64,000 nucleotides of DNA, taken from the IMG/VR virus record IMGVR_UViG_3300037067_018091, positions 23,700 to 87,699 of that record. One strand, 5' to 3'. A program made the translations under genes and the position numbers. This stretch comes from a virus. Its lineage: Duplodnaviria > Caudoviricetes. Positions 1,435 to 32,032 of the stretch are shown here, piece by piece. Positions within the stretch are counted from its first letter, which is position 1. Every line of letters begins with the position of its first letter. The notes under the pieces were generated by a model. The model was not told where the DNA came from and made no database searches. It saw only the letters and a program-made list of their open reading frames with translations.

Positions 1435-1932
1435 ATGGCTAACACTATTACTTTGAGAGGACACTTCGGCATTAAACAGTCGTTTAACGTTGCGTCTACG
1501 TATAGTTCTACTACTGGTTTGTATGCTCCTACGGCATCGTGGGTCGCCGGACAACTTTTTGTCATCGGCACGGCATCAACTTCATTAGTAGATGAGTACG
1601 TAGTAAAATGTTCAACGTCTGGATCTGCGGTCCTTGGAGTAGCTCTTGAGAACAGTGCGGATGCATCTACTGCTGTTGCAGGTATGGCGCAACCGTCAGG
1701 TTCTAAAGTAACTATTCTTCATGGCCACAGCAAGTTCGAAGTGAAGAACGGATCCGCTAATGGATGCTACGAATCAGAAATTGATGAAAATACTTCATTG
1801 ATGACTCTGTTGTACGCTTCCAGTAACGGTAAGTTCGCTAAGACAGCGGGCAGCGGCCACGCAATTGGTTTCTTAACCAAAGCTCCGTCTGCTTCAAACA
1901 GTTACACAATTGGAGTCGTTTTATTCGGCTAA
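1435..1932 (+). CDS. Capsid decoration/stabilising protein
   Basis: 165 aa, Gly/Ser/Ala-rich beta protein immediately before the MCP; GGAGG RBS. Confidence 0.6.
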   Translation: MANTITLRGHFGIKQSFNVASTYSSTTGLYAPTASWVAGQLFVIGTASTSLVDEYVVKCSTSGSAVLGVALENSADASTAVAGMAQPSGSKVTILHGHSKFEVKNGSANGCYESEIDENTSLMTLLYASSNGKFAKTAGSGHAIGFLTKAPSASNSYTIGVVLFG

Positions 1933-1953
1933 TTAGGAGGTTAGTACTTTATT

Positions 1954-2943
1954 ATGAAAAAGAATGCAAGTGCATACCCGCCCGGATATCAGCAGAAAAC
2001 TGCGACTCCTGAAGCGGGGTTTGGTGTGGAGAAGACAGCTGACTTCTCAACAACTGATCCATATACGCAGTATACAGATGCTGCCGAGGCGGATCAGATT
2101 TTTACGCTTTTGCAATCGGAAGCAGGGCGCCAGGCATTAGGTGCTCAAATGGCGATTCCTATTCGTACCCAGCTCGATTACCAGGGCATGGCGCGTAGAT
2201 TTTTCGAGATCGACGTTCTAGGTCAGGGACAAATTGCGCGGTACGATCGGGATATTAACGCATTCGCGGCCACAGTAACTAAGAAAGGTGAGTCTGTTCA
2301 GTTTATTGTTGAAGGCGCATACGTTGAGCCCGTAACGTGGGAAATTTTTGCTCCCGCGGCAATTCGGTTGAAAGAAATCCAACAGCGTCGTTTCAATGTT
2401 CTCGATCGTATGCAGGAGAGAATCCGTATTGCGGTCCAGATCGAAGAAGACACGCAATTCTTGGCCCTCACTGAAACGGTCGTGTCTAACAACACGTCCA
2501 ACAACCCGATTACTACTTCTACTGCGGGCGCATCTAAGGATTTCTATAATCAACTTTCTGCGGAAATTATGAAGTGGGATTTGCCCGCTTATGCGTACTT
2601 GATGAATTTCAAGACGTTCAGTCATTTCCGTTCATGGCGTCGTAATGACGTTGATCCTGTAACCCAACGTGAAATTTGGCAAACTGGATTATTTGGTAGT
2701 CTTTGGGGAGTCGATATCATTGTCTCCCGTTTGGTTCCAAATAACTGGGTCTATTGCTATTCTGAGCCGCGGTTTACAGGTGTATTACCTGTTCGTACTG
2801 ATTTGATTCTTCTTCCGGATGATACGCCGAAGGAAGCATTGATCGGTTATGTCGGGTACGAAGAAATCGGTATGTTGATTGTTAATTCGAATAGTGTCGC
2901 CCGCGGGTCATTTAGTGGTTTTATTTCTACTGGTGTTGCTTAA
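1954..2943 (+). CDS. Major capsid protein, HK97 fold (encapsulin/linocin-like subtype)
   Basis: 329 aa; ALGAQMAIPIRTQLDYQGMARR..GQIARYDRD and C-terminal GYVGYEEIGMLIVNSNSV resemble large-phage MCPs; AGGAGG RBS; followed by a hairpin. Confidence 0.8.
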   Translation: MKKNASAYPPGYQQKTATPEAGFGVEKTADFSTTDPYTQYTDAAEADQIFTLLQSEAGRQALGAQMAIPIRTQLDYQGMARRFFEIDVLGQGQIARYDRDINAFAATVTKKGESVQFIVEGAYVEPVTWEIFAPAAIRLKEIQQRRFNVLDRMQERIRIAVQIEEDTQFLALTETVVSNNTSNNPITTSTAGASKDFYNQLSAEIMKWDLPAYAYLMNFKTFSHFRSWRRNDVDPVTQREIWQTGLFGSLWGVDIIVSRLVPNNWVYCYSEPRFTGVLPVRTDLILLPDDTPKEALIGYVGYEEIGMLIVNSNSVARGSFSGFISTGVA

Positions 2944-2957
2944 TCGTTGTTGAATAA

Positions 2958-2987
2958 GTAAAGAGGGGGGTAATTCCCCCTCTTTAC
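2958..2987 (+). terminator. Stem-loop after the MCP gene, probable terminator or transcript stabiliser
   Basis: GTAAAGAGGGGG-gtaatt-CCCCCTCTTTAC, perfect 12-bp stem; no clear U-tract. Confidence 0.7.
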
Positions 2988-3009
2988 CGTTAAGAAAGGA
3001 TTTTATAGA

Positions 3010-3875: not shown

Positions 3876-4418
3876 ATGGCGGTAACGGTTTATTGGGTAG
3901 AATTTAACGCTGGGTATGGTGATGGTAGTACAGGGACCGCACTTGCTCAAAGTTTAAATTTTGGCAGTGTAGATCTTGCGAATTTGACTCCTGCCAGTTA
4001 TCCGATCGCCGCGGGATCTAATGGTTTTGCTAAGTATATAAAGATTCATTTTTCTGGATCTTATACACAAATTAGTAATGCAAAACTTTGGAAGTCTAAT
4101 GGAGCGTATAAGACTGGAGAAGCAATTAAATTCTCTGGTAATTACGTAAAAGGTACTGGTGCGCCTACTGCGACTGCTCTGCCAGCAGTTAGTGGTAAAG
4201 CAGTTCCAGATATTGCTGTGGCATCTCCGGGTAGTGCGAACGTTTGCTTACCTGATTTGACTACAGATATTTTGAAACAATCAGAACATGAAAGCTCTCC
4301 TGGGTATGCTTCAGGTGCGTATTCATCTATGATGGCGTTCCAGCTCCAAACTACTTCGAGTGCTCCGGCCGGTCCGGTTAACACAAAGACAATTTCGCTT
4401 ACATACGATCGACAGTAA
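3876..4418 (+). CDS. Putative virion structural protein
   Basis: 180 aa, Ala/Gly/Ser/Thr-rich beta composition, GGAGG RBS, in head-neck block. Confidence 0.55.
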   Translation: MAVTVYWVEFNAGYGDGSTGTALAQSLNFGSVDLANLTPASYPIAAGSNGFAKYIKIHFSGSYTQISNAKLWKSNGAYKTGEAIKFSGNYVKGTGAPTATALPAVSGKAVPDIAVASPGSANVCLPDLTTDILKQSEHESSPGYASGAYSSMMAFQLQTTSSAPAGPVNTKTISLTYDRQ

Positions 4419-4505: not shown

Positions 4506-4943
4506 ATGTGGAAAGCAAAGTTTAAAGATGGTTCAACTCTCCAAGAATTTGATGATTCTGGAAAAAATGAAGTACTTTTTGGAAAAGTGATGGCTCGTGT
4601 AACAGAATTAGAAACTCTTTCAATTCTTTTAACTTCTTCTAAAAGTTTTACAATTCGTTTTACCGATGGCCGATTTACCTTATCTAATAATGGTGTAGAT
4701 ATTCATATTTATGGATTTGATTTTCAAAAATATGATATTTTTAAATTAACGAATATACGGCCAATTTATTTTGTTCGTGAAACCGTAGATTTTAACATTG
4801 GCGCGCGTAAAGGTTTGCAAGTTGCATCTCAACCGCAGATTAATTTTATTGCATTAGGATTTCAAGCAAATTATGAGAATAAAAATATTAAACGATATTT
4901 GTTAATTTCTCCGGGTGGAGATAGTTTAATTAAGGACGAATAA
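4506..4943 (+). CDS. Hypothetical protein
   Basis: 145 aa, GGTGGAG RBS, TAATG-coupled to next gene. Confidence 0.65.
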   Translation: MWKAKFKDGSTLQEFDDSGKNEVLFGKVMARVTELETLSILLTSSKSFTIRFTDGRFTLSNNGVDIHIYGFDFQKYDIFKLTNIRPIYFVRETVDFNIGARKGLQVASQPQINFIALGFQANYENKNIKRYLLISPGGDSLIKDE

Positions 4944-5725
4944 TGCAAATTTTATATCGGGATAAGACAGAGCGCATCTGGACAGATTTTAAAGATGAAA
5001 ATGGTATTTCTATACAACCATCTGGTAGTATCACTGTAAGTATTCAATATCAAAGTGATGCGACTCCTCGAGTTGCGGCTGCAGTAGCTACGCATTATGC
5101 TAACGGGCAATATTTTTACGAGATTGATGTAGATAGTACTTGGCCATATGGGTATTATGGTGCATTTTGGCAAGCGGATCAATCTGGATTAATTCTTGCT
5201 GCAGATGTTCCAAATGTATTTAAAATAGAAAGTACTAATGAGTCGATCATAAAAGGAATTATGCTTGAACGTGTACGGTCTCAATTATATATGCATGAAG
5301 ATATGGGCGGATTTATAAATAAATTTCCACGAAATCGAGAACTATTAGATCATTTACAAACAAGCTTAAATTGGTGGAATGCTTATCCACCTGCAATAAC
5401 ATTTCATTCATTTCTTGATGTGCCTCAACCATATTATTCTATTATTGAAGAAGGCGCTGTTATAAATGCATTAGTTGCTATTGGGGTATTTGAAGCGGGT
5501 AAACATTTTATTTATAATGATAACGGAATTTCATTAACTCGTGATCGTAGCGGTAAATATCAAGCAATTTTTAATCAATTGATGACGAGTTATATACAAA
5601 ATTTAAAAGCCATGCGTACAAAATATGCACTTGATCATGTAATCGCGCGCGGATTATTCTCTAGTACTACTGGTTTCCCGAGAAGTTTGTCTCGTGCGCT
5701 CAGAGGCGTGAGCAAGTTCGCATAG
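4943..5725 (+). CDS. Head-tail adaptor (neck) protein with N-terminal Ig-like extension
   Basis: C-half LNWWNAYPP..GAVINALVAIG..YNDNGISLTRDRSGKYQ resembles large-phage neck proteins; N-terminal ~95 aa beta-sandwich-like. Confidence 0.6.
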   Translation: MQILYRDKTERIWTDFKDENGISIQPSGSITVSIQYQSDATPRVAAAVATHYANGQYFYEIDVDSTWPYGYYGAFWQADQSGLILAADVPNVFKIESTNESIIKGIMLERVRSQLYMHEDMGGFINKFPRNRELLDHLQTSLNWWNAYPPAITFHSFLDVPQPYYSIIEEGAVINALVAIGVFEAGKHFIYNDNGISLTRDRSGKYQAIFNQLMTSYIQNLKAMRTKYALDHVIARGLFSSTTGFPRSLSRALRGVSKFA

Positions 5726-6194: not shown

Positions 6195-7104
6195 TGGAAA
6201 TCCTCTCTCACCGGGTGAGAATTTATTTACTGATTGTGAAATTGGATTAGATAAAGAAATTATCGCTTATATAAAGGAAAACCATACTCTTCAAGTGAGA
6301 ATTGGTGCAGAACCATTTTATTTATTTCAACGAATAGATCAAGGAGAGTTAATAAGTCGTTCGGTCGTTAGATGGGCTACGGCTGCTCCACAATATTCTG
6401 CAATAATTTGGCAACCTGGAGATAGTGATACACTTCATCCAAATCATAGGATACAAACAAATCATTGGACATTATTTAATAATGCTTCTCCAATGACAAG
6501 AGTATATGATAAGGATTCTATTGCGTATGATAATGAATATGCAATAGAATTTTTACGCTCAAATTCTGAAAGTACGTTTGGAACAGTTAAAGTTTGGTTT
6601 AATAATAATTTTGTACCGACAAATGTTTCATATTCATTTCGAAATTTGTGTATTTGTGTAGATGCTACAACAGGATATCCAAATAGAGAATGTCCGCTTT
6701 GTCGTGGAACAAGTTATCCTGCAGCATTTACGCTTTATACATGTGCTGCTTCTAAATATAAACCAACAAATACAATTTTAGTACGTGTTCCTATGATAAA
6801 ACAGGAAGATCCTGTGGAACAAGTTGGTAGAATTCGTAGACGTGATACATTTCATTGGACTGAAGCAGATCCATATGTTAATAATTATGATTTAATTATG
6901 GGGACAATAGGAAACGATGCGGGCGTTTTATTTGAAATTGTTCGTAAAGCGGATAGTAGATGGCGTGGAATTTTAACGCATCAAGAATTTGATACTGTAC
7001 GTATTGAAGATAGCGATATTCGTTATCAACTTGCACCTATTTCAATAATTCCAAAGATAACTGAAATTGCAACAATTACATCAGATGCGGTTATTACAGT
7101 ATGA
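6175..7104 (+). CDS. Head-closure/neck protein with Cys motif
   Basis: GAEPFYLFQR..CICVD..ECPLCRGT..FEIVRKADSRWRGILTHQEF; located between adaptor and terminator. Confidence 0.55.
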   Translation: MSPIINSGNPLSPGENLFTDCEIGLDKEIIAYIKENHTLQVRIGAEPFYLFQRIDQGELISRSVVRWATAAPQYSAIIWQPGDSDTLHPNHRIQTNHWTLFNNASPMTRVYDKDSIAYDNEYAIEFLRSNSESTFGTVKVWFNNNFVPTNVSYSFRNLCICVDATTGYPNRECPLCRGTSYPAAFTLYTCAASKYKPTNTILVRVPMIKQEDPVEQVGRIRRRDTFHWTEADPYVNNYDLIMGTIGNDAGVLFEIVRKADSRWRGILTHQEFDTVRIEDSDIRYQLAPISIIPKITEIATITSDAVITV

Positions 7105-8189
7105 GTTTAGAATTTAGACAATCGAGAGATATCAAACAAGTTTTTGTAGAATTTGTAAATAAAATCTTTCATTTAAATTCTCAATGGATAAATGTAGATA
7201 CTGAAGTTATATCTGTATCTGCGGAAAATGCTCCAAATGCGTACGAACAATATCCATGGGACAATGAAAAATATCCAATAGTCGTATGTTTATCTGATGG
7301 ATCTTCCGATGATCATTGGGCAATAGATTCGCGCATTGGAAATTTTTGGGAAACTTTACGTGTAGGTTCTGCTGCAAGAGATTATGTTCAACTCGGGAAT
7401 AATCCAGTTGCGTTTGGAGTACATATAGATGATACTCCATTAACGCTTCGACAAGTAAAATTACCTCTTTTGTATCTTGGACCTTATGAAGAATCCGTTG
7501 GAATTACTCTTTGGTCTTCAGGCTCTTTAGGTCCTGCGGTTAAATTAGCTAGTGGAAGTATTAATCCGGGGAGAAATGCTAATTATAAATGGTACCAGAC
7601 GGGCATGTATGATTTAGCTAGTGATAATGTAATACTTACGGCTAATACGAATTATTTTATTTCGGTTAAAGTATTGAGTGGTTCGTATGCATTGATGTTG
7701 GATAATGCTCCAAAACCATCAATTACACCTTTTGTAAGATATTTACAATTTAATGGTACTAATTGGAATATAGATTATACCAAAACAGGGTACGCATTAT
7801 TAAACGGCCCGATTTATAGACGCCTCGGCGGTGGTCTTCAAAGTAATATTCGACTTTTTATAGAGGCAAAAGATCTTTCTACTACCCAGAAAATTGCAGA
7901 ATTACTTTTTATTTATTTACACTTACAAAAGCACTCTAATGTAAAACGTAAAATTAAACAGACATTAGAATCGAATCAAACTGGGATGGAATACGATTTT
8001 GTAAGTAATTTATCTGAAAAAGGTATTTTTATTATTGATGTTAATAAAGGTGGCGAAAATGTTCGAAATCGTGGAAATGACCGCCTTTTTTCTATAGAAT
8101 TGACCATTACTTGCTATAGTGCATGGACTGAGGACTTTGTACTACCTGAATTGAAGGATATAAATACAGATGATATAGGTTCTTTTTAA
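7101..8189 (+). CDS. Tail completion/terminator protein with inserted beta domain
   Basis: YEQYPWDNEKYPIVV at N-end and IRLFIEAKD..LFSIELTITCYSAW at C-end flank a jelly-roll-like insert; directly upstream of sheath. Confidence 0.55.
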   Translation: MSLEFRQSRDIKQVFVEFVNKIFHLNSQWINVDTEVISVSAENAPNAYEQYPWDNEKYPIVVCLSDGSSDDHWAIDSRIGNFWETLRVGSAARDYVQLGNNPVAFGVHIDDTPLTLRQVKLPLLYLGPYEESVGITLWSSGSLGPAVKLASGSINPGRNANYKWYQTGMYDLASDNVILTANTNYFISVKVLSGSYALMLDNAPKPSITPFVRYLQFNGTNWNIDYTKTGYALLNGPIYRRLGGGLQSNIRLFIEAKDLSTTQKIAELLFIYLHLQKHSNVKRKIKQTLESNQTGMEYDFVSNLSEKGIFIIDVNKGGENVRNRGNDRLFSIELTITCYSAWTEDFVLPELKDINTDDIGSF

Positions 8190-8201: not shown

Positions 8202-8262
8202 TATAAATGTATAGTTGGCGCTTTTGAAAATATTTTGTTTATCATAATTTTTGGAGGTTAAC

Positions 8263-9654
8263 ATGGCTTATACACCACCGAGTGTACGAGTTACAAGTAT
8301 TGCGAATAGCCGAATAATTAATATTTCCGGTGATGTTCGTATTCCTGCAATTGTTGGTGAAGGTCCGTCTGTACGTACGGTCACTGATCAGGCAATTGTG
8401 CGCGGATCAGGCGCGGGCCCGGATCTTTTAAATATTACTCCAAGCGGTAGCGCAGGAACTGTAACATTAACTCGTGTATCTCCCTATCCGGGAGCAACTT
8501 CAAGCTATTCAGCTTGGGATAATCGCTATTCACTTTCTGGATCGTTTGGTGATGTTTATTGGGATCCAGGTGCAGTTCAAGGAAGTACGGCGCCGCGCCG
8601 GGGTGAAATTTATTATGTCTCATATGTTTATCCTGTGCCCGCCACTCAATTTGATCCAGTAATTTTTACGGATTCGAATGATATCATCGCCGCATATGGA
8701 GCTGAAAGTGCTTTAAATAAGTTAACGGTTGCTGCAAATATGGCATTAGAAAATGGTGCACCCGCAGTACTTTGTTTACAAGTTTCAGGATCTGGATCAT
8801 CGTTGGCTAATTGGCAAAGTGCTTTAAATAAGTTAAGAAAGAAAGATAATATCGCGTATGTTGTACCTATTACAACAGACGTTGCCGTAACGGGTATCGT
8901 TGCTGCAGTCGTTCAACATTGTAATGAACAATCTTCTCCAGATATTGGACATGAGCGTGAAGCGATTGTCGGTATGGATAGTGCGGCAACTGTAGATACT
9001 ACTGTTACTAAATCTACTGCATTAGATGATAAGCGCGCAATTTTAGTTGCTCCGGGCGTATCAGTTACTCGTACTACCGCGGCTGGTACAACGTTAACTC
9101 TAGACGGATCATATATAGCTGCGGCACTTGCGGGATTAATTACTGCGCAAGCAAAACCAATTCAACCTGTTACAGGAAAAATAATTACAGGATTTGTAAT
9201 TCCCGATGATCAATATGAACCGTATGAGATGAATCGAATGGGGGCAGCCGGTGCGACAGTTATTTATGCTAAATCGGGTATAAATAAAGTTAGACATGCT
9301 GTGACGACTGATCCTACTTCTTCAGATACTTTTGAAATTTCTGTAGTTGCCGCAGATGATTTAGTTCGTAGAATTACACGACAAAAATTAACTGATGCGT
9401 ATATCGGTAAAGGTCTTGTAATTACGGCGAGCACTCCGGCGCAAGTTGAAGGTACCGTTAAGGCAATTTGGAATTCACTTGTTAGAGATGGTTTAATTTT
9501 TGAATATGGTACGAAAAATAATCCTACTACAGGAGAGGTACCTATTTCAGCTGCGCAAGATCCAAATGAGCCGACTCGTATTAATGTAACTGGATCAGTT
9601 AAGTTTTTGTATCCACTTAACTATATCAGTTTAGAATTTTATATCTATGTGTAA
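8263..9654 (+). CDS. Contractile tail sheath protein
   Basis: MAYTPPSVRVTS..IPAIVGEG, DIIAAYG, C-terminal EISVVAADD..RINVTGSVKFLYPLNYI; ATG at 8263 has GGAGG RBS (track start 8251 is TTG). Confidence 0.9.
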   Translation: MAYTPPSVRVTSIANSRIINISGDVRIPAIVGEGPSVRTVTDQAIVRGSGAGPDLLNITPSGSAGTVTLTRVSPYPGATSSYSAWDNRYSLSGSFGDVYWDPGAVQGSTAPRRGEIYYVSYVYPVPATQFDPVIFTDSNDIIAAYGAESALNKLTVAANMALENGAPAVLCLQVSGSGSSLANWQSALNKLRKKDNIAYVVPITTDVAVTGIVAAVVQHCNEQSSPDIGHEREAIVGMDSAATVDTTVTKSTALDDKRAILVAPGVSVTRTTAAGTTLTLDGSYIAAALAGLITAQAKPIQPVTGKIITGFVIPDDQYEPYEMNRMGAAGATVIYAKSGINKVRHAVTTDPTSSDTFEISVVAADDLVRRITRQKLTDAYIGKGLVITASTPAQVEGTVKAIWNSLVRDGLIFEYGTKNNPTTGEVPISAAQDPNEPTRINVTGSVKFLYPLNYISLEFYIYV

Positions 9655-19967: not shown

Positions 19968-19976
19968 GAGATAGAT

Positions 19977-20150: not shown

Positions 20151-20674
20151 TGGCGATTTCAATTACAAATATTAAACAAATTGCGAGTACCGTCGGGATA
20201 TCGACGATATTTATTAAAGCTCTTGTGGGACTTTCTCAACCTGCTCGAAATGCTTTAAGATTACAATTAAATTCAATCAAACAAAGTTTAAAAGGTGAAC
20301 TTTCTACACTTGCATTTAAAGCGCGAATTGCTAAAAGAAAACAAACTGAAATTAATAAAATTTATAGTTCTGCAGGTGCAAAGTTAAGCCAGGCTAAACG
20401 AATTTTAAATTTATTAAATTTTGGGCCAGATTTTAATGATGAACCTGAGGTACAGAAATTAATTGATACACTATTGGCAAGCGTTAAGATTAAAGGAATT
20501 TCTCTTGGTGGCTATAGAGATGCAGATAATATAATTAATGCCCTTAATTTTAAGGCGCAGCAAGCCGCAAAAGCAGTAGATTTTGCAGAAATCGGTGTTC
20601 GCACAATTAATGCAAAAATTGATACAATTGATAAATATTTAAACGTTTTAACCGAAATTGATCGACTTAGTTAA
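20150..20674 (+). CDS. Hypothetical basic helical protein
   Basis: 174 aa, coupled start. Confidence 0.6.
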   Translation: MAISITNIKQIASTVGISTIFIKALVGLSQPARNALRLQLNSIKQSLKGELSTLAFKARIAKRKQTEINKIYSSAGAKLSQAKRILNLLNFGPDFNDEPEVQKLIDTLLASVKIKGISLGGYRDADNIINALNFKAQQAAKAVDFAEIGVRTINAKIDTIDKYLNVLTEIDRLS

Positions 20675-20713
20675 AATTATTATGTATACTACGTTAAGCG
20701 GTAACTAATATTT

Positions 20714-21673: not shown

Positions 21674-21675
21674 TT

Positions 21676-23145
21676 ATGTCTACTGGTAGTATTATACAAA
21701 AAGATACAATCGCGTTATTAACCGATTATAATTATACAAATTTACGGGTTTTTTACGCACGTGATAATATATATGGATTACTGTGTACAAATAATACTCT
21801 TGCAAACGATTATTATTTAAAAACGTTTTCAATAGATGTTGATGGAAATATTGGAAGTGTTTTAGATTCTGTTCGTTTAAGTGATGCGGGGACATCAAGT
21901 TTAACTGATGCAATTGCAATATCGACTGCAGATGGGATTATTCTTTTTAATTTAATTACTACTGCAAGCGGGAGTATTCAAACTCGACAAATCGCCGCGG
22001 ATGGGACAATTGGAACCGTAATTGATGCATTTTCATATACAGACGGCGCTCAAAATAGTCTTGCTTATGGCGCTGTTGCTCAAATTACATCTGATTTATT
22101 CATGGCATCATACTATAATAATAAAAATACTTCAGGAAAAACTGCAACATTCACATGTGATAGTATTGGCAATTTAAGTAATGGATTTATTCAAACATAT
22201 ACATATGAACCAGTATTGGCAAAATGGCCGCAAATTATTTTACAGGGTAGTGATGCAGGAAAAAATGTAGTTTTACTTACACGAGTTGAAGGAAATTCTA
22301 TCTCAGTAGTTACGGCCGTTAAAGTTTCAGATACTGGAACTTTTGAGAGTACCCCTACATTATTAGATCGTATAGATTCAGATGATGGTTATAGATCGCA
22401 AACTGCAGTTGTTTTCCCCGCGCAACGAATTTACGCAACTGTTGCGGAAGGAATATCTACTCAAGATGGCTGGATTTATTCATGGACGCTTAAAGTAAAC
22501 GGTACAGTACCAGATATAAATAATCCTATAGATCAATATGAATATGCTCCAGTTAAGGGTATATATAATCAAATTATATCTATTGATCAAGGAGTTATAT
22601 TAATTGCATCAGTCGATACCGATAATGATGGTTGGGTACGATCATGGCAAATAGACTCGGCAGGCGCGATTACAAAAACACCATTAGATACTTTTGAATT
22701 TGCAAATAATCAATTTGTATTTGAACAATCAATGATTTTAACAGAACATCCTAAAACAGTATTGCTTGCGTCGCGATATAGTGGCGGATCTGTTTATCTT
22801 TTTACATTTGAAGTAGAGACACCTACAATTGTAACTGATACAATTGTAATTGGAATTGATGCACACATTAAAGCACAAGAAAATGTATTTTTAGTATCTG
22901 ATGCATTAATTAAAAATATAGAAGCAGTTTCAATTTTTTCTGATAGTTTAATTATACCAGTTTGGCCTCCAACAGATTATGTACAGTTAAATTCAAGTGC
23001 AGAAATTATTGATCATGATCAAATAATAATTACATCAGAAGCATATATTATTCAAAATACTCAAGATAAGCTTGAGGTACAGTCTAGAGTTCGGAGTATA
23101 ATTCCCGCATCATCAAGTGATGATGGTGGATTTCAAATATTTTAA
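21676..23145 (+). CDS. Virion appendage protein: beta-propeller-like head plus C-terminal repeat stalk
   Basis: About 50-aa blades (TFSIDVDGNIGSVLD, QIAADGTIGTVID, WQIDSAGAITKTPLD); SDALI/SEAYII repeats. Confidence 0.55.
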   Translation: MSTGSIIQKDTIALLTDYNYTNLRVFYARDNIYGLLCTNNTLANDYYLKTFSIDVDGNIGSVLDSVRLSDAGTSSLTDAIAISTADGIILFNLITTASGSIQTRQIAADGTIGTVIDAFSYTDGAQNSLAYGAVAQITSDLFMASYYNNKNTSGKTATFTCDSIGNLSNGFIQTYTYEPVLAKWPQIILQGSDAGKNVVLLTRVEGNSISVVTAVKVSDTGTFESTPTLLDRIDSDDGYRSQTAVVFPAQRIYATVAEGISTQDGWIYSWTLKVNGTVPDINNPIDQYEYAPVKGIYNQIISIDQGVILIASVDTDNDGWVRSWQIDSAGAITKTPLDTFEFANNQFVFEQSMILTEHPKTVLLASRYSGGSVYLFTFEVETPTIVTDTIVIGIDAHIKAQENVFLVSDALIKNIEAVSIFSDSLIIPVWPPTDYVQLNSSAEIIDHDQIIITSEAYIIQNTQDKLEVQSRVRSIIPASSSDDGGFQIF

Positions 23146-23146
23146 T

Positions 23147-24259
23147 ATGGCATTAAGTAAACTTATACCGGTTGCGGGTCTTAGTAAGACAAATAGTAGT
23201 GCGTGGACCCCGACAAACACCGCGCTTTCAAATAACAGTAAAGTTATTGATGGTGATTTTATCGCCGCAATTCAAACTGTTTTAAATTATCAAGCAGTTG
23301 GATTAGATTTAGGTAGCCCCCAAATAATTGAGAGACTTATTTTATATGATCAAACTTCGAGTGCAGATGCGGGTATATGGACAGGCGGTAATCATGATAA
23401 TTTAAGTGTATATATATCAAATGATAATTCGACATGGACATTTGTCGAATCGTTTAATCCTCCCTCACGCGCGGGTACTACTAGTGGTATTATTACTATG
23501 GATTTAGCAATACCACAAACTGCTAGATATATTCAAGTATTTACTACAGATTATAATTTATATGCTAAAAATGGTACCCCATTAGTACATGTAGAATTAG
23601 AAGCGTATCATTATGAACTCGTAACAATTTTATCTGATGCACAAATAATTTTATCAACGCAAGATATTGTAACTATTTTATCTAATGCACAAATAGTTAA
23701 TCCGTTCGCGTTTACATATGCAAATGCGGGTATAACGGCTGATACCGTTGATACTTTAGAAGTTAATTTTAACACGATCAATCCAAAATTAAAACATGTA
23801 TGCAGCCATAAATTATCTTCGGGTACTTATCGATTATCAAATTGTCCAAGATGTCTAAGTACCGGATATTATTACGATATCAAGTTTAATGAAACGGGCC
23901 AATTAGTTACAATTCCATTGATTGAGCAGCTTGCTCAGATATTAGAAAAACTTGCTATTACTGAGGAAAATAAATTTCACCCGGAAATTGCGGTGAATAT
24001 TACAAAATGGCTGGGAAATTTTTCAATTCCTGAAATACGGAATGCAATAAAATTTGACTTATTAAAAAGTTTAATGGTTCTACAAGAAGCTCAAAAAGGT
24101 GTTTCAAATCTTTCTGGAGAGGTTCAAATAGGTCGGGTAGATAGTGTTGAAGTTTATGAGAATCCGGATGATAATACAAGTGCAATTTATATTATTAAAG
24201 TTACTTCTGTATCTGGGGTTAACAAAGAACTTTCTGGTGCAATAATATTTAACGGTTAA
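23147..24259 (+). CDS. Discoidin (F5/8-type C)-like domain fused to a gp25-like baseplate wedge domain
   Basis: VGLDLGSPQIIERLILY..VYISNDNSTWT..TARYIQV; C-terminal CPRCLSTGYYYDI..ENKFHPE; ATG at 23147 preferred to the track GTG at 23117. Confidence 0.6.
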   Translation: MALSKLIPVAGLSKTNSSAWTPTNTALSNNSKVIDGDFIAAIQTVLNYQAVGLDLGSPQIIERLILYDQTSSADAGIWTGGNHDNLSVYISNDNSTWTFVESFNPPSRAGTTSGIITMDLAIPQTARYIQVFTTDYNLYAKNGTPLVHVELEAYHYELVTILSDAQIILSTQDIVTILSNAQIVNPFAFTYANAGITADTVDTLEVNFNTINPKLKHVCSHKLSSGTYRLSNCPRCLSTGYYYDIKFNETGQLVTIPLIEQLAQILEKLAITEENKFHPEIAVNITKWLGNFSIPEIRNAIKFDLLKSLMVLQEAQKGVSNLSGEVQIGRVDSVEVYENPDDNTSAIYIIKVTSVSGVNKELSGAIIFNG

Positions 24260-24490
24260 AATATGACTGAAGAAACCAAAACGATTACATGCTCGGCGGT
24301 TATTGTACATCCGGAATCATTTATATTTGCGACGCCTAGTGTTACTACGGCGACAACATTGAATAAAAACCAAGTTGCGTTTGATTTGAAGTTAAAACAT
24401 ACTTGTGATCATAGACTTTTAACCGGTACGTATAAACTCGTTAATTGTCCAAGATGTCTAAGTACTGGATATTATTACGATATCAAGTTT
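23840..24490 (+). repeat. Dispersed 48-bp near-identical repeat shared by two wedge paralogues
   Basis: aattgtccaagatgtctaagtac(c/t)ggatattattacgatatcaagttt at 23840-23887 and 24443-24490, one mismatch. Confidence 0.85.
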
Positions 24491-24871
24491 GGGGATACCG
24501 GACAATTTTTAACCGTATCTTTAGAAGATAAATTAATACAAGAATTAGAAAAACTTGCTCTTACTGAGGAAAATAAATTTCATCCAGAAATTATAATGGG
24601 TATACAAAAATGGTTGGGGGCGTTAGGAAATAATGAAAATCTGGGAATAATTAAAGATGATATTGTCTCAACTCTTGTAAGTCTTCAAGAAATACAAAAA
24701 AATGTGCATAATCTTTCGCCCCGTGCAAGAATTTCGACGGTAAATTCAATTACGGTAGATTTAACAGATCCGGGTACTCTTTTGTATACTATAACGTTAA
24801 CGACCGTTTCGGGTGAGGACAAAACTATTTCGGGCACTATAACGCTTAGTGATCTTAGAACTAAATTATAA
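24263..24871 (+). CDS. gp25-like baseplate wedge / sheath-initiator paralogue
   Basis: Homologous to the C-terminal half of the preceding gene; directly upstream of baseplate J. Confidence 0.6.
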   Translation: MTEETKTITCSAVIVHPESFIFATPSVTTATTLNKNQVAFDLKLKHTCDHRLLTGTYKLVNCPRCLSTGYYYDIKFGDTGQFLTVSLEDKLIQELEKLALTEENKFHPEIIMGIQKWLGALGNNENLGIIKDDIVSTLVSLQEIQKNVHNLSPRARISTVNSITVDLTDPGTLLYTITLTTVSGEDKTISGTITLSDLRTKL

Positions 24872-26326: not shown

Positions 26327-28264
26327 ATGGCGCGCAATCTTAATACATTTCTTCAAAGTCTCTTAAAAAATATTACTACATATTATACCGCAACGTATTC
26401 AAATGATACGGATCTCTATTCTATTCTTCAGATGTATGGTGCAGAATTGGCATCTGGATCAACTACATTAGAAACCGTTCGAAATAATCTGTTTATCGTT
26501 ACTTGTGAAGATTCAAAATTAACCGATAATTTCGGTACATATTTTGGACAATTAAAATATTCTAATCAAGATTATAACGAAGATAGATATATATCAACAA
26601 TTGCAGATTGGTATAAATCTGGATCATTATTACATCAAAGATATAGTCAACCTGATTATAATCATCCTTTTGAATTAATTTCATTTACAACTCCTTCAGT
26701 AACAAATAATCCCTGGAGTTTTTCTGTCGTAACTGGCCCAAGTACAAATGTGGGCAGAAATCCATATGTTGCAGCAGTTTTTAGTGGAAGTATTGTATTT
26801 GCATTTCGTGGCCAACCAATAGTATATGAAAATCCATATCAAAACGTTTATTCGCCATGGCGCCTTTCAGCATATGATCCAATTTTAAATACATGGACGC
26901 CACTAACTGCGCAATATGACGTTACCGCCGGCGCAGTATATCTTTATGGATTAACTTCATATGCACCTTATTTAGGGCATGGACAATATTCAAGTGAACG
27001 TTTTTGGGCATGGGATGTATTTGTAACAACTTTAATGGGCGATCCGTCAGATAAAACCCCGCGAATTAGATTATATGAGTATAATGGAGATTATGTTCAA
27101 ACGATTCATGATAGTACAACCGCAGCGGTTAAATTACCACATGTTTTAGATCCTGTTACATATGGATGGAACGCAACAAATAAATCTGTAATATTCCATG
27201 ATAAAATTTATATTGGATGGTCTCATGATAACAGTGATCCACATTTAGTTTCATACGATCCTATTACTGATGCATTTGTAGATCATGATTTAGCTACGTA
27301 TGCATCTGGATCGATTGCTTCTTCGGGATCAATTGCAACTACTTTTAATATGCATAATCCAATTGTAATTCATGATAATAAAGTAATGGTGGAGGTAGAT
27401 TATACTTCAGATATTCCGGCAACGGGAAATAAAATATTTGCATTCGATAGTACAAATTGGACAATGTTAGATGCGCCGAGTAATTCTATAAGTTCAAATA
27501 AATTTATCGATTTTAATGGAACACTGTATGCAATTATAGATGATTCTGTAATGGTATACAATGATTTTTCGGGGTCTTGGACTACGCATACAAGTTTTAA
27601 TGGACTTTATCCACGAGATATTTTTGTTTTTCAAAATAATTTAATAGTTTCAGTTAATTATGGGACGGTATATAGATTATCGCTTGCAGATAATCAATTT
27701 ATTGAATTTGATCAATTAGATAATAGTATTAAAGATTCGCCGTCCTTATTTGTTGAACTTGCAGATACAATATATGCATATTATCAAAATGGTTGGTATT
27801 CTTCATCGTTTGTTTCTACTACAGAATGGTCACAATTATGGCCGGCACCGCATACTGCAGGTACCGCAATACAAAATGTCTCTATTCCAGGATACAGAAA
27901 ACAATTAGAATTTATGTTAGAGGCTGCAGTAAACGGTAGTACTCATAAGGGGATTACACGAATGGTTAATGCATTTACACTAATTAACCCAGATATTCGT
28001 GAAATATATACCCTTCCTCAATGGAAACTTACAAATAAAACATATAATGTTACGCAACTAAGTTCTAATACTTGGCAATTTTCTGGTGCGACTAATTTTA
28101 GAACAAATTTATTTGCTGGTGCGCACGCAACATTTGTAAGTGGGAGTACGCCGCAGGATAAAGTTGCTGCCGCATATTTAGTTTTAATAAATGATAATGA
28201 TTCAGTTACTGTCGGCGCAATTGAAGATAAACGACTATTAATGGAAATAGTGAGACCGTCATAA
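26327..28264 (+). CDS. Baseplate wedge protein (gpI/gp7-like N-half) with a large inserted beta-propeller-like domain
   Basis: LQMYGAEL..LTDNFGTYFG and YRKQLEFMLEAAVNGSTHKGI flank several hundred residues of propeller-like repeats. Confidence 0.55.
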   Translation: MARNLNTFLQSLLKNITTYYTATYSNDTDLYSILQMYGAELASGSTTLETVRNNLFIVTCEDSKLTDNFGTYFGQLKYSNQDYNEDRYISTIADWYKSGSLLHQRYSQPDYNHPFELISFTTPSVTNNPWSFSVVTGPSTNVGRNPYVAAVFSGSIVFAFRGQPIVYENPYQNVYSPWRLSAYDPILNTWTPLTAQYDVTAGAVYLYGLTSYAPYLGHGQYSSERFWAWDVFVTTLMGDPSDKTPRIRLYEYNGDYVQTIHDSTTAAVKLPHVLDPVTYGWNATNKSVIFHDKIYIGWSHDNSDPHLVSYDPITDAFVDHDLATYASGSIASSGSIATTFNMHNPIVIHDNKVMVEVDYTSDIPATGNKIFAFDSTNWTMLDAPSNSISSNKFIDFNGTLYAIIDDSVMVYNDFSGSWTTHTSFNGLYPRDIFVFQNNLIVSVNYGTVYRLSLADNQFIEFDQLDNSIKDSPSLFVELADTIYAYYQNGWYSSSFVSTTEWSQLWPAPHTAGTAIQNVSIPGYRKQLEFMLEAAVNGSTHKGITRMVNAFTLINPDIREIYTLPQWKLTNKTYNVTQLSSNTWQFSGATNFRTNLFAGAHATFVSGSTPQDKVAAAYLVLINDNDSVTVGAIEDKRLLMEIVRPS

Positions 28265-28935
28265 TGGGCGCAGAAATAAATAATTTTATAGCAACTCCCT
28301 ATGATAGTGGGGTAGTTTTAGAATGGACTGCAGGATACGGTGCGTCTATAAATTCTGGATCTATCGACTGTAAAGTAACAATTCAATATTCAACAGATAC
28401 AATTCCAAATAATGTACAAAATACTCCTCCTTTTGTAGTTAGGGATTTAGGACAAAAACAAGGTACAAAAAATATTTTATGGGTGCCCAATTTAACAAAT
28501 GATCAACAATATTGGTATAGTCTTTGGGTATATTATTATGATACGGGTATGTGGCATGGCCCGTTTACGACATTTGCCACCCCAGTATCAGGATCATTTC
28601 TTTCTTGGCGAACCGGCACATTATCTTTTACAAAACTCGGTACGAATACCCGGTTGTCACCACTGCAACAAATTGTATCTAATATAATTATATGGTTGCC
28701 TAATAGTGAATCGTCTCGTGAAAATGTTATTGAACAAGCGTTGAAAAATATTGCTCCGGCGCACGTTAAATTAAATATATTTTATGAACATTATTATGTT
28801 GCATGTACTACTACGGAACAATTTAGTGGGTCTACATATGATCCTAGTGTTTGGACAATAGAACAAGGTAAAATGGTTAACAAACTCCCGACTATTGATT
28901 CAAGTTATAGCGGGCACGCAGATATCAAGTCTTAA
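28264..28935 (+). CDS. Baseplate wedge protein (C-half-like) with fn3-like N-terminus
   Basis: FIATPYDSGVVLEW..YWYSLW fn3-like; VIEQALKNIAPAHVKL is the gpI-type PAH motif. Confidence 0.5.
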   Translation: MGAEINNFIATPYDSGVVLEWTAGYGASINSGSIDCKVTIQYSTDTIPNNVQNTPPFVVRDLGQKQGTKNILWVPNLTNDQQYWYSLWVYYYDTGMWHGPFTTFATPVSGSFLSWRTGTLSFTKLGTNTRLSPLQQIVSNIIIWLPNSESSRENVIEQALKNIAPAHVKLNIFYEHYYVACTTTEQFSGSTYDPSVWTIEQGKMVNKLPTIDSSYSGHADIKS

Positions 28936-28946: not shown

Positions 28947-29510
28947 ATGACTCTATTAGTTCAGTTCAAAGGTGGCGACGATGTCGTTACATTAAGTAGT
29001 GGCCAATTAATTGGATTTTTTGGATCTGGTTCTATAAGTGCTTTTGGTGAATCTATTCCACCGAATGCATATAATAGATATACTGCAGTTACAAATACTT
29101 TAGGAACAATTAATTATGGTGCACTCCCAAATGTACAATATATATCCTCTATCACAGGCGATATTGGAAATGGCGCAGTTGCATTAACTTCAATTCCATC
29201 GGGATCTTGTACATTACATATTCGATTAACTTCGGGGTCTGCACTTACAAGACTTCAAGCAGTTAGATTAATTGTATACGATAATAGATTTGGTCTTACG
29301 GTAGGACCATTTGATGTTGCAGTAAAAGGATTTGAATATGGAAGTATTACTTGGAGTACGATGTCGGGTTCAGCAGCTCCATTAGTTTTAACTCCTCATA
29401 CAGGAAGTGCGCAACTTTATCACGATTATTATGTAGGTATTTCAGCATCTCCTGCGTTATCAGGATCACATGTAACAACTGCACTTGCACTTTATGCCGA
29501 ATGGTATTAG
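28947..29510 (+). CDS. Putative virion structural protein, SGS-rich
   Basis: 187 aa, five SGS motifs, GGAG RBS. Confidence 0.55.
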   Translation: MTLLVQFKGGDDVVTLSSGQLIGFFGSGSISAFGESIPPNAYNRYTAVTNTLGTINYGALPNVQYISSITGDIGNGAVALTSIPSGSCTLHIRLTSGSALTRLQAVRLIVYDNRFGLTVGPFDVAVKGFEYGSITWSTMSGSAAPLVLTPHTGSAQLYHDYYVGISASPALSGSHVTTALALYAEWY

Positions 29511-29519
29511 GATAAATAA

Positions 29520-31022
29520 ATGGCTCAAGCAAATATAGCAGCATTTGGATCAATTGTAAGTTATTCTTCGCAGGATTCTGCTTATCCTTGGATTAATCTA
29601 CTCGATGGTAATACTGCTACGAATGGAAGATCCGCTATAGGTAATCCAAGGTATCAATGGGTAATTATCGATTTAGGTACCGTTTGGCCACTTACAGGAT
29701 TTAAACTTTGGGGCGGATCTCTTAGTGATGTTACTTCAGATGTATTCGGTTTTGATATAGCGATTTCTGCTACAGGAATTACAGATAGTGATTTTATAAA
29801 AATTTCTCCTTATAGTCATCTCATGCCTCCGCGCAAGATTACTGGTGCTGTACAAAGTTCACAAATAGCGATTGCACCATCGAATGTAAGATATGTAAAA
29901 TTATATTTATATTCTAATCGTCTCAATGCTTTATATATTAATGCATCGGATTTAGAAATTTATTCGTTAACAATTGACCAAATAACAACATCAATTTCGT
30001 CTGCTGCAACAATTTATCTTCCGCAACAAACAGAAACTATTGCATCAAATGCATTTATTTTTTATCCAGTTTTCACAGATCAAAGAAGTATTTTAGCGAA
30101 TGCAGAAATTACTGATACGAAAAGTGATCAATTATCAGATGCTCTTATTGTTGATGGCCTCATTTATTCGAATTCAGTTATTAAAAGTATAGAATCTAAT
30201 ACAATTATATCTAACGCATATGTTTATCGAAGTGGTTCGTATAAAACAAATCTTTTATTATTTGGGACTGCAAATCCTGTATCTCAAACACATAATATGT
30301 TAGTATTTTCAACTGATATATCTTCTTCTAAAGAAGTTATTGTTGATGATATGATTACTGGGCCAATTATGGATATGAATACTATTAGTCCTCCGCTTGG
30401 CTATAACAATTATGATTGGAAATATGATTGGGTTGTACGTACTTTTAATCAATGTCAATATAAATTTGAAGTACGTTCAGCAGACGAATTGCTTGAATTA
30501 TCTGCTGAACCGTTCCATGCAATTCAATTAGAGGATCAAATTTATAAAGGACAAGTAAATAGATATCATCAATGGCGCTGTCATATTTGGGCAAGTGGAT
30601 CTGGAGATTTTGAATTACATCAATTTACTATTAAAGGGTATGTTGATTATCCTGCGAATCCATTATATCGAACATTGTATGAAAAACCTTTTATTACAAC
30701 ATCCCATGTAAAAGCACCTGGAGATACGTTTACACAACAATTATATGAACCTCCGTTAGAAGCAATGTCATGGGCAGGCCCGTATATTCCAGGTGATTTA
30801 AATGGTGATTTCAATTTAACAACGATGGACGCAACTATTTTAATTCAGACGGTTTTTGGAATTCTTTCTAAAGATTTAATCCCTGCTCCAGGATTTTACA
30901 TACGGGGAATATACTCTGATTTTGCAGGGCACATTGTTCCAAATGTCGGTGATGCAGTACAAATAAATCAATATATCCTTTCTGCCGGCCCTCCGCCGAA
31001 AAAGCGACAAGAACCAATTTAA
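29520..31022 (+). CDS. Tail appendage protein: discoidin-like N-domain, repeat stalk, C-terminal dockerin-like domain
   Basis: WVIIDLGTVWPLTGFKLW..NVRYVKL; SNAFI/SDALI repeats; GDLNGDFNLTTMDA..NVGDAVQINQYILSAGPPP. Confidence 0.6.
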   Translation: MAQANIAAFGSIVSYSSQDSAYPWINLLDGNTATNGRSAIGNPRYQWVIIDLGTVWPLTGFKLWGGSLSDVTSDVFGFDIAISATGITDSDFIKISPYSHLMPPRKITGAVQSSQIAIAPSNVRYVKLYLYSNRLNALYINASDLEIYSLTIDQITTSISSAATIYLPQQTETIASNAFIFYPVFTDQRSILANAEITDTKSDQLSDALIVDGLIYSNSVIKSIESNTIISNAYVYRSGSYKTNLLLFGTANPVSQTHNMLVFSTDISSSKEVIVDDMITGPIMDMNTISPPLGYNNYDWKYDWVVRTFNQCQYKFEVRSADELLELSAEPFHAIQLEDQIYKGQVNRYHQWRCHIWASGSGDFELHQFTIKGYVDYPANPLYRTLYEKPFITTSHVKAPGDTFTQQLYEPPLEAMSWAGPYIPGDLNGDFNLTTMDATILIQTVFGILSKDLIPAPGFYIRGIYSDFAGHIVPNVGDAVQINQYILSAGPPPKKRQEPI

Positions 31023-31036
31023 GTTGAGGTGTATAA

Positions 31037-32032
31037 ATGTCGAACGTAGTTAATGGTTTCGGGTCTCAATTTTTTGAAGACCAGCATGTTTTACCAAAAG
31101 ATTTGAATATGATTGAGTATTCTAAAACTCAATTACTTCGTAATTATATTCGAACAAAAACCAGACAACCAGGTGTATTAATTGATGCTCTTTCAGATCC
31201 TGATTTACAAGTTACTACTATAGATGGTACTACATTTAATGTAGGTTCGGGCGCTGCGATAGATTCTGAAGGAAGATTAATAATTATACCAAATAGTACT
31301 ATTGCAAGTGGGAGTACTGGAACTGATCCAAAATATCATCCTGTATGGCCGAATAGAGAAAATTTAGTATCTGGAATTTCTGTTGCTGGAATTTATTATA
31401 TTAATTTAAAATATGCACAACAATCTGGAGATATTAGATACGATGACTCTGGCGTTTCGCATGAAACACGTATTTATGATAGTTTTTCAATAGTTGTTGA
31501 ATCTACTCGAAAGGGCGTTACTCTTGCAAAAGTACAACTTAATGCAAGTGGAAGTATCGTTACAGATGATAGTGAACTTGGCTATTATAATCCAACTACT
31601 GGAATTTATTATGCTTTATTTGATGACAGACCTTTATATAAAGTAACTGATGGTACAGTTGCAAGTTTAGAAGTTCAAGTAGGAGAGAATACTGAAGATT
31701 TACAAGAAGAACTTCGTAAGAGCGCAGGATTTTTATTTCCAGTTGCTGCGCAGACTCTTACAGATAAATGGGGCCGAAATGTAAATCTTTTACGAATGGA
31801 AGTGTATGCAGAAGGTACAAGTGGTAATGTATCGTTCCAGCTCTATTCAGGATCTTCCCCGAATGGCTTAAAAGGTCCATTGACTGTAGTATCAACGACC
31901 GCGGGTGCATGGACTGTATCAAGTACTCTTAATTTGGTCGGGTATAAAGGGGATACTCTTCAACTTTATGTTTCATCCGCGGATTCTACAATCACTGCTG
32001 CGACGTGTAGTTTAGTATATACGAGACATTAA
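31037..32032 (+). CDS. Baseplate/fibre-attachment protein
   Basis: FFEDQHVLPKDLNMIE..FNVGSGAAIDSEGRLI is a common fibre-base pattern. Confidence 0.5.
   Translation: MSNVVNGFGSQFFEDQHVLPKDLNMIEYSKTQLLRNYIRTKTRQPGVLIDALSDPDLQVTTIDGTTFNVGSGAAIDSEGRLIIIPNSTIASGSTGTDPKYHPVWPNRENLVSGISVAGIYYINLKYAQQSGDIRYDDSGVSHETRIYDSFSIVVESTRKGVTLAKVQLNASGSIVTDDSELGYYNPTTGIYYALFDDRPLYKVTDGTVASLEVQVGENTEDLQEELRKSAGFLFPVAAQTLTDKWGRNVNLLRMEVYAEGTSGNVSFQLYSGSSPNGLKGPLTVVSTTAGAWTVSSTLNLVGYKGDTLQLYVSSADSTITAATCSLVYTRH

Follow-up and report, generated by a model that had tools for sequence, protein, structure and literature searches.

Genomic context of the window

We analysed a stretch of 64,000 nt, referred to here as the window, from the IMG/VR virus record IMGVR_UViG_3300037067_018091 (positions 23,700-87,699; Duplodnaviria; Caudoviricetes). 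The record is 87.7 kb long and belongs to an uncultured phage, the window phage, whose genes all lie on the plus strand; coordinates are those of the window unless stated otherwise, and genes are referred to by their start positions. Our subject is the tripeptide Ser-Gly-Ser (SGS), which is strongly enriched in the virion proteins of this phage, and its association with a pair of adjacent glycosyltransferase (GT) genes of the GT4 type that lies downstream of them.

The window opens with a myovirus morphogenesis module (1-34286) that includes genes for the major capsid protein (MCP, 1954), the tail sheath (8251) and a baseplate-J-like wedge (24895); most of its other genes had no PHROG match. 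This virion module is phage-G-like, and the best match of the MCP is that of Bacillus phage G (38%). A megablast search of GenBank found no close relative of the window, and a first scan of IMG/VR with protein 26327 as the query gave no match. The module is followed by a glycosylation island (34991-53638) in which Pfam and NCBIfam searches recognised seven GT4/GT1-type GTs, two GT2s, an acyltransferase, a PseB-like and a PseC-like enzyme and a methyltransferase. Replication and 7-deazaguanine genes start at 54698.

Excess of SGS in virion proteins

Counting overlapping matches, we found 41 SGS tripeptides in the virion genes (1435 to 32046; 10,624 amino acids, aa) and 2 in the remaining 9,798 aa (34302 to 63891). 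This bears out the first-pass annotation of this DNA, which had put the numbers at about 40 in morphogenesis proteins versus 2 between 34.3 and 64 kb. Its counts per gene also agreed with ours throughout, except for the sheath, which has four sites and not three because SGSGS counts twice (the gene has a TTG start at 8251). The sites are carried by the following genes:

1435-1932, plus strand: 165-aa all-beta protein encoded just upstream of the MCP gene; 2 SGS
3876-4418, plus strand: 180-aa head/neck-module protein; 1 SGS, the site kept in the G002 and G001 orthologues
4943-5725, plus strand: 260-aa head/neck-module protein; 1 SGS
7101-8189, plus strand: 362-aa protein encoded directly upstream of the sheath gene; 3 SGS
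8251-9654, plus strand: tail sheath (PHROG tail sheath); 4 SGS, at residues 65, 96, 179 and 181
17415-19967, plus strand: 850-aa fibre-like protein with internal 22-residue repeats; 9 SGS
21676-23145, plus strand: 489-aa baseplate-region protein; 1 SGS
26327-28264, plus strand: 645-aa protein encoded downstream of baseplate-J (peripheral baseplate or fibre); 7 SGS
28264-28935, plus strand: 223-aa distal tail protein; 3 SGS
28947-29510, plus strand: 187-aa distal tail protein; 5 SGS
29520-31022, plus strand: 500-aa distal tail protein; 2 SGS
31037-32032, plus strand: 331-aa distal tail protein; 3 SGS

As had been claimed, SGS is absent from the MCP (1954), the presumed tube (9677), the presumed tape measure protein (11359), baseplate-J (24895) and 32046; it is also absent from 13236, 14198 and 16225. 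The permutation GSG, given earlier as about nine, was recounted at 8, or 9 if the open reading frame (ORF) 1..1401 is included.

Shuffling of residues had been set as a test of the excess. Over 5000 within-protein shuffles the mean number of SGS was 5.9 (standard deviation 2.4, maximum 16), and the observed 41 is about 7 times the expectation (Poisson P ~3e-21), making SGS the top outlier among all tripeptides. The second outlier, GSI (21 versus 4.9), overlaps SGS-I. Control tripeptides were near background (SSG 1.9x, GSS 1.4x, SGT 1.4x, TGS 0.9x, GSG 1.7x), AGS, SGA, NGS, DGS, SGN and SGD were likewise found at about their expected numbers, and threonine at the first motif position occurs at background in the window phage.

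The serine codons within SGS mirror general serine usage, with TCN and AGY codons mixed, and selection therefore acts on the protein and not on the DNA. A DNA motif was ruled out for this reason; the glycine codon GGA is only moderately over-used (25/41 versus 39%). Paralogy of the carrier proteins was ruled out as well: the sole paralogues detectable by BLAST, 20714/21676 and 23117/24263, hold 0-1 sites. The last two, the former through its C-terminal half, are 49% identical (23117-24871), and 20714 and 21676 have in common a C-terminal domain of about 107 aa with 37% identity (20714-23145).

Eight further SGS are found in genes upstream of the window. Six of the eight are in four small proteins (116, 152, 201 and 203 aa, with 2, 1, 2 and 1 sites) encoded at genome positions 18583-20808 (locus L076), and these may be additional surface virion proteins encoded before the head module.

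Placement, conservation and context of the sites

The sheath gives the clearest view of where SGS is placed. Its AlphaFold2 (AF2) model has a pLDDT of 77.6 and aligns to the phage 812 sheath with a VIA-align Z of 31. The 71 sheath homologues, a family without repeats, have 1-5 SGS each, with a mean of 3.3 versus about 0.25 expected from composition (~13x). These sites are spread over about 12 alignment positions, all at residues 53-244 in the N-terminal half, and none falls in the conserved C-terminal half, which in sheaths forms the inner layer. The first-pass annotation had named burial as a check on its proposal, and in this one modellable family every SGS column is predicted to be a loop or hairpin tip: residues 65-67 form a flexible loop, 96-98 the tip between strands 93-96 and 101-104, and 179-183 a strand-to-helix link. 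The product of 1435, a possible head decoration or accessory protein, gave a poor AF2 model (pLDDT 63.7, too poor for a fold search) with both sites in loops. Its two sites are kept in 53/67 and 57/67 homologues, the second within a strongly conserved stretch.

Comparison of orthologues shows SGS to be 2-10 times as likely to be retained as the average tripeptide (12/21 sites versus 19% in the comparison with G002, 4/8 versus 5% with G008), and sites that are lost are offset by new ones elsewhere (lost and gained: 9 and 7, 10 and 8, 8 and 9). Since site positions turn over while the count is kept, descent alone is insufficient as an explanation. As far as sequences can tell, it is the SGS motif itself on which selection acts, given its conservation, its turnover and its presence in non-paralogous carriers.

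Orthologues of 7101 have 0-4 SGS at partly different positions, counterparts of 26327 in G002, G004 and G005 have 8-10, and the G002 orthologue of 28947 has 4, of which 2 are at identical positions. All three sites of 31037 are kept in G002, and the gene is triplicated in G004 with 3, 2 and 4 SGS. In the fibre-like protein 17415, the 22-residue repeats (NYVDN[IA]-SGS-[IC]...) lie at residues 161/183 and 343/365/387, so that about three of its nine sites are repeat copies; the G002 counterpart has 17 SGS. Two fibre-like proteins of G016 (L093:2220-5927, which is G016 42220-45927, and L097:11032-13086, which is G016 131032-133086) consist of 25-residue tandem repeats with the consensus DNNLQNQITLV-SGS-LxTEIQNRINx, one SGS per repeat, and hold 37 and 15 SGS. 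The hydrophobic spacing of this repeat is coiled-coil-like, with SGS between two core positions.

We also examined the context of 334 non-redundant SGS sites after removal of near-duplicates. P/A/V are over-represented at -1, 67% of the sites have a hydrophobic residue at +1 (background 41%), and D/E/K/R are depleted from -3 to +1.

SGS in relatives of the window phage

Relatives were collected as sheath homologues from metagenomes, together with IMG/VR loci. Among those with at least 35% sheath identity, 22 of 23 loci had SGS at 2.8-8.2 times the expectation, whereas loci at or below 30% identity were mostly at 1-2x and distant controls showed a mild ~1.5x. Locus L003 (sheath 35% identical, observed/expected 0.9) was uninformative, as it holds replication genes and inner tail proteins only; in this distant relative, L003:1-2867 codes for a DNA polymerase of family A that has a UDG domain fused to it and contains an intein with a LAGLIDADG domain.

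Over whole records, observed and expected SGS were 51 and 13.1 in G002, 47 and 11.6 in G004, 51 and 6.1 in G005, 53 and 16.2 in G008, 35 and 5.4 in G001, and 84 and 18.5 in G016. In five divergent relatives pooled, the virion blocks had 259 SGS versus 37.3 expected and all other genes 27 versus 31.2; pooled controls over five genomes were SSG 1.58, GSS 1.07, SGT 1.06, TGS 1.63, AGS 1.1 and NGS 0.88. The same classes of protein carry the sites in every clade genome, namely the sheath, the small MCP-adjacent protein, the fibres and the proteins distal to baseplate-J. The clade MCP, tube, tape measure and hub have zero SGS, and baseplate-J has none or at most one. The outgroup G010 had 33 SGS versus 27.7 despite nine GT4 matches, and T4, which is without the GT pair, showed no excess (15 versus 14.9). 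In G004 the tripeptides SDA (51 versus 7.8), QQI (38 versus 7.0) and DAN (35 versus 6.2) are stronger outliers than SGS, a sign that G004 encodes a large tandem-repeat protein.

Several relatives are on contigs binned as Cloacimonadota, Omnitrophota (a 164.6-kb contig), Novosphingobium and Chloroflexota (L104, L105; P0070, P0103, P0241). These are most likely phage contigs caught by binning, and hence they name no host; the bins point to anoxic sediment or wastewater habitats.

A conserved GT4 pair opens the glycosylation island

About ten GT genes begin 700 bases past the last tail gene and the endolysin, so that GTs stand next to structural genes. The features of this region are:

34302, plus strand: GH108 endolysin
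34991-36259, plus strand: first GT4 of the conserved pair, a candidate for recognising the sequon or for priming (Pfam Glycos_transf_1)
36704-37873, plus strand: GT4, second of the conserved pair (Pfam)
40474-41469, plus strand: GT4-like glycosyltransferase of nearer relatives only (orthologues in G002 64%, G004 43%, G005 39%)
39684-49678, plus strand: variable island part, with GT2s (39684, 48890), CgeB-like GTs (41968, 45808), GT4s (44027, 46718), MgtC (45075) and small ORFs (Pfam)
49688-53638, plus strand: nucleotide-sugar genes, namely an LpxD/NeuD-like N-acyltransferase (49688), a PseB-like 4,6-dehydratase (50653), a PseC-like aminotransferase (51688) and a methyltransferase (52850)

The two genes at 34991 and 36704 are present in every clade genome that covers the region after the fibres. 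They directly follow the fibre genes in G002, G004, G005 and G016, while a few small genes intervene in G008 and G007 (L089), as they do before the 34991-type gene of L081 and L090. The 36704 type always adjoins the 34991 type, both in the clade (G002, G004, G005, G008, G016) and in phages outside it (immuto, Mel-JY01 and the loci L131-L133, described below). The 34991 type forms a discrete family, with about 110 clusters at E <=1e-73 followed by a drop to 1e-16, and in a metagenomic search it was found only on contigs of phage-like size. The window pair belongs to this phage family, as two adjacent genes in the same order that score well above the generic GT4 level. The catalytic E-x7-E motif of GT4 enzymes is invariant in both types (E288/E296 in 34991; E272/E280 in 36704, for which five sequences were aligned).

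The rest of the island is less constant. Its variable part has patchy conservation across the relatives, and within the island only the first genes are conserved. Protein 40474 had no sequence match in the PDB, and the Pfam and NCBIfam matches of the nucleotide-sugar genes are all under the equivalog cut-offs. An AAA_33/zeta-like kinase gene (38152) also lies inside the island.

According to the first-pass annotation, SGS enrichment and GT clusters should go together in related genomes. The excess does go with the pair 34991/36704, but not with GTs in general, since G010 has nine GT4 matches and no excess. No relative without GTs was found, as each record estimated to be at least 75% complete has GT clusters; the fragments without GT matches (G001, G003, G006, G011-G015) do not reach the relevant region. 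The GT pair comprises the sole non-structural, non-replication genes found in all the SGS-rich genomes examined.

We found no match to a flippase, polymerase, initiating phosphoglycosyltransferase or oligosaccharyltransferase in the window with Pfam and NCBIfam. Apart from MgtC (152 aa) and two ORFs of 92 and 144 aa, no protein of the window has several hydrophobic segments, and the GTs are soluble; such an island suits the direct glycosylation of proteins. A pathway for envelope glycans is therefore unlikely, as the membrane machinery for it is lacking. The MgtC-family gene and, after it, the 92-aa ORF with three hydrophobic segments are placed in the middle of the soluble GT island (45075-45808); in G004 the MgtC homologue is located elsewhere in the genome.

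The GT4 pair and SGS outside the clade

Co-occurrence of the pair and SGS within one clade amounts to a single evolutionary event, and lineages outside the clade were therefore tested. The cultured Flavobacterium phage vB_FspM_immuto (immuto) has homologues of both genes, adjacent and in the same order (profile E 2.7e-65; BLASTP 26% and 29%). After them come genes for a GT2, a DegT aminotransferase (34% identity with the PseC-like 51688), a methyltransferase, an acetyltransferase and an epimerase. The pair of immuto is not beside fibre genes. Its virion module is T4-like (annotated gp23 and gp20) and has no similarity to the structural proteins of the window phage that BLAST can detect, the genes shared at that level being those of the island and one phosphoribosyltransferase (29% identity). 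In the virion proteins of immuto, SGS is again the top tripeptide outlier (62 versus 16.5), with 1 versus 3.4 in its other genes, and the flanks show the same hydrophobic -1/+1 pattern. TGS is also raised in immuto (47 versus 17.1, or 2.7x), compared with 0.9-1.6x in the window phage and its clade.

Three T4-like loci, L131-L133, were picked solely because they encode the GT family (contigs of 121-264 kb). In each, the partner GT is adjacent and a T4-like baseplate module follows. The motif [ST]GS was found 10 times versus 3.6 expected, 10 versus 2.9 and 18 versus 3.1, respectively; it is limited to two peripheral baseplate proteins in L131 and L132, and 15 of the 18 in L133 are there. Microcystis phage Mel-JY01 has the pair and a 2.8-fold excess. 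Its 34991-type GT consists of two consecutive coding sequences that match the N- and C-terminal halves (L109:10-1501; 83441-84932), either split or frameshifted. Apart from Mel-JY01, whose count is confounded by low-complexity S/G/T stretches, the carriers of the pair examined here have an excess of (S/T)-G-S in outward-facing virion proteins.

DNA was also considered as a target of the island. A digest of immuto DNA contained dA, dC, dT and fdPreQ1 replacing dG, with no glycosylated nucleoside (bioRxiv 10.1101/2023.04.13.536721). No hydroxymethyl-pyrimidine enzyme was found among the proteins scanned, and glycosylation of DNA is therefore unlikely.

Comparison with known glycosylation systems

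In mycobacteriophages the glycans reportedly sit on the C-terminal ends of capsid and tail-tube subunits of siphoviruses. Their virions are reportedly glycosylated by phage-encoded glycosyltransferases, as Freeman et al. 2023 (Cell Host Microbe) are said to have described. A passage in PMC12619734 cites that work for mycobacteriophage virion glycosylation. Like those phages, the window phage has soluble GTs encoded beside structural genes, and its genes would allow a coat to be made in the cytoplasm without a lipid carrier. In contrast, its MCP and presumed tube lack SGS, no Ser/Thr-rich C-terminal extension is among the sites found, the candidate tripeptide is in internal loops of the sheath, baseplate and fibres of a myovirus, and the GT4 family is a different and discrete one. 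As read from its genes, the window system is different from mycobacteriophage glycosylation in carriers, sites and enzymes.

Chlorovirus PBCV-1 encodes cytoplasmic GTs that build glycans N-linked to Asn of its major capsid protein, in a eukaryotic host. The window phage would resemble it in having virus-encoded, host-independent machinery and its own non-canonical acceptor motif. The best PDB sequence match of 34991 is the PBCV-1 GT4 B736L (E 1.3e-6), over about 60 residues of the generic GT4 nucleotide-binding region only.

In Gram-positive bacteria, GtfA/GtfB O-GlcNAcylate serine-rich repeat adhesins that are linked to an accessory Sec system, with GtfB as a non-catalytic co-activator. The proposed system of the window phage would likewise be cytoplasmic, Ser-directed and based on a pair of adjacent GT4-fold proteins. 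Matches of 34991/36704 to Gtf1/GtfA (4pqg, 5e9t; TIGR02918) are weak and generic, with a score of 18.4 bits against the GtfA equivalog TIGR02918, for which the cut-off is 574.6. An inactive partner of the GtfA/GtfB kind was ruled out, as E-x7-E is kept in both the 34991 and the 36704 types. The phage sites also differ from the adhesins in being isolated tripeptides in folded domains and not long Ser-rich repeats, and the window phage has no accessory Sec system.

The O-glycosylation sequon of Bacteroidota, D-(S/T)-(A/I/L/V/M/T), is used in the periplasm with a lipid-linked glycan, and Thr is accepted. It resembles the phage motif in its length of three residues and in the small or hydrophobic residue after the modified Ser/Thr, and one of the phages with the motif infects Flavobacterium. 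However, Asp is required at -1 in the Bacteroidota, whereas acidic residues are depleted at -3 to +1 of the phage SGS (334 sites). In addition, transfer en bloc from a lipid carrier, as in PglL and Bacteroidota systems, would call for an initiating phosphoglycosyltransferase, a flippase and an oligosaccharyltransferase, all polytopic membrane proteins, of which no matches were found in the window.

Xylosyltransferases act on Ser-Gly sites with acidic neighbours. The first-pass annotation had drawn an analogy to this proteoglycan pathway, and the two are alike in specificity for Ser and in the Gly beside the acceptor. The analogy fails because acidic flanks are depleted at the phage sites, and GSG and SGD are at background and no GT14-type enzyme was found. 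Flagellin glycosylation of the pseudaminic-acid type uses PseB, C, H, G, I and F together with a Maf-type transferase. This pathway is also incomplete among the proteins scanned, which include a PseB-like protein (191.9 bits, cut-off 407.75), a PseC-like protein (172.9 bits, cut-off 423.5) and an acyltransferase, and no synthase, CMP-transferase or Maf.

Interpretation and alternative explanations

We propose, with a probability of roughly 0.6, that SGS is a recognition motif for the modification of virion proteins, most likely O-glycosylation by phage-encoded GTs. The acceptor would be an SGS in an uncharged loop, with a small or hydrophobic residue at -1 and a hydrophobic one at +1, and one or both serines would be O-glycosylated. 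Soluble phage GTs may act on it in the host cytoplasm late in infection, with the pair 34991/36704 recognising the motif and adding the first sugar or sugars. Lineage-specific sugars, probably among them a derivative of 2,4-diamino-2,4,6-trideoxyhexose, would then be provided and attached by the variable GTs and the PseB-like, PseC-like, acyltransferase and methyltransferase genes. The outcome would be a glycan coat on the sheath surface, the peripheral baseplate, the fibres and some head-module proteins, with no glycans on the capsid shell, the tube, the tape measure or the inner baseplate. The first-pass annotation had taken SGS as the acceptor of the GT island and envisaged a glycan coat on the particle. 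The excess, the loop placement in the sheath and the association with the GT pair came out in favour of that idea, but, as the MCP is without SGS, the coat would chiefly cover tail, baseplate and fibres, along with a few small proteins of the head module. We further suggest, at only a little better than even odds, that a mobile module of two GT4 genes sets a portable tripeptide sequon of strict residue order for O-glycosylation, and that this sequon has been written independently into exposed sheath, baseplate and fibre loops of unrelated myoviruses that acquired the module and is kept there by loss and regain of sites.

Several points weigh against O-glycosylation at SGS. It is unusual for O-glycosyltransferases to require Ser at two positions and to reject Thr. 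In fibres, SGS recurs at the same point of periodic repeats (22 residues long in 17415, 25 in G016), and in the 1435 family it is in a strongly conserved stretch; a structural role would give the same picture in both cases. The placement in loops comes from one confident model, that of the sheath. The matches of the pair in PDB and NCBIfam were all generic for GT4 and are silent on the acceptor. The association of the pair with SGS involves few independent lineages (the clade, immuto, L131-L133 and, weakly, Mel-JY01, where S/G/T low-complexity stretches confound the excess), and shared ecology could confound it. Moreover, that SGS is modified, that the modification is a glycan, which enzyme would prime it and what the coat would do are points that we infer from sequence.

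The alternative that deserves most attention, although we consider it unlikely, is that SGS is modified or bound by something else and that the GT island acts elsewhere, for example on host envelope glycans or some other macromolecule. The motif could be phosphorylated by the AAA_33/zeta-like kinase 38152 or by a host kinase, or it could serve in adhesion to, or binding of, a ligand from the host or the environment. The kinase-like gene does lie within the island, and Ser-only specificity is common among kinases; the links of the motif to sugars and to the GT pair are correlative. Yet this gene is absent from G004 and G005 and located elsewhere in G002, whereas the GT pair alone, among genes outside structure and replication, is common to the SGS-rich genomes, and immuto has in common with the window phage only the island genes and a phosphoribosyltransferase. 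An action on the envelope is also hard to reconcile with an island devoid of the membrane machinery for it, and the DNA of immuto has no glycosylated nucleoside.

We regard as improbable a purely structural role, in which SGS would be a tight turn or linker of beta-rich tail proteins and fibre repeats, fixed by descent and unconnected to the GTs. The modelled sheath sites, all in turns or loops, would suit such a role, as would the fixed place in the 22- and 25-residue fibre repeats with their hydrophobic flanks and the highly conserved stretch around the second site of the 1435 family. However, the turn-formers NGS, DGS, SGN, SGT, TGS and GSG are not enriched, the motif occurs in unrelated proteins, its number is maintained although the sites change position, neither T4 nor the distant sheath relatives show the excess, and the excess recurs in phages that combine unrelated virion genes with the GT pair. 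Least credible of all, and very improbable in our judgement, is a statistical artefact of Ser/Gly-rich, low-complexity or repeated segments. Although enzymes contain less S and G than structural proteins, within-protein shuffling already corrects for composition; SSG and GSS, made up of the same residues as SGS, reach only 1.1-1.9x; and 334 non-redundant contexts remain, with the repeat-free sheath family at about 13 times the expectation, although some sites are repeat copies, the distant controls stand at ~1.5x and Mel-JY01 illustrates how low complexity can inflate the count.

Other features of the window

ORF 1..1401, which has no PHROG match and no SGS, encodes the C-terminal end of a head-module protein of great length (genome positions 21.3-25.1 kb). 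The homologues are 1330-1444 aa long in G002 and G004 and are split in G016. In addition, 7-deazaguanine genes and a phosphoribosyltransferase are present in both the window phage (61067-62800; L075:8446-12506) and immuto (30.6-37 kb); the 7-deazaguanine set of the window phage consists of FolE2, a radical-SAM QueE-like gene and DUF366.

Implications

A search of the literature found no publication on an SGS sequon in phages, and the 'moraphage' paper lists core GTs only. If our interpretation is true, SGS would be the first sequon to be defined for the glycosylation of phage virions. Paired with this short tag, the two small soluble enzymes would further offer a possible means of glycosylating chosen sites in the bacterial cytoplasm. 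Flavobacterium sp. LMO8 and its phage vB_FspM_immuto are a cultured pair with both module and motif, and the hypothesis is testable at once in them. If SGS is a sequon, glycosylation sites would become readable from genomes, with a bearing on receptor binding, adhesion to particles and mucus, resistance to proteases and antibodies, and the interpretation of cryo-EM maps. Many uncultured phages of aquatic and sediment habitats would then be glycan-coated, the variable part of the island giving each lineage its own glycans. Overall, such coats would extend beyond mycobacteriophages, being widespread among environmental myoviruses and predictable from sequence.

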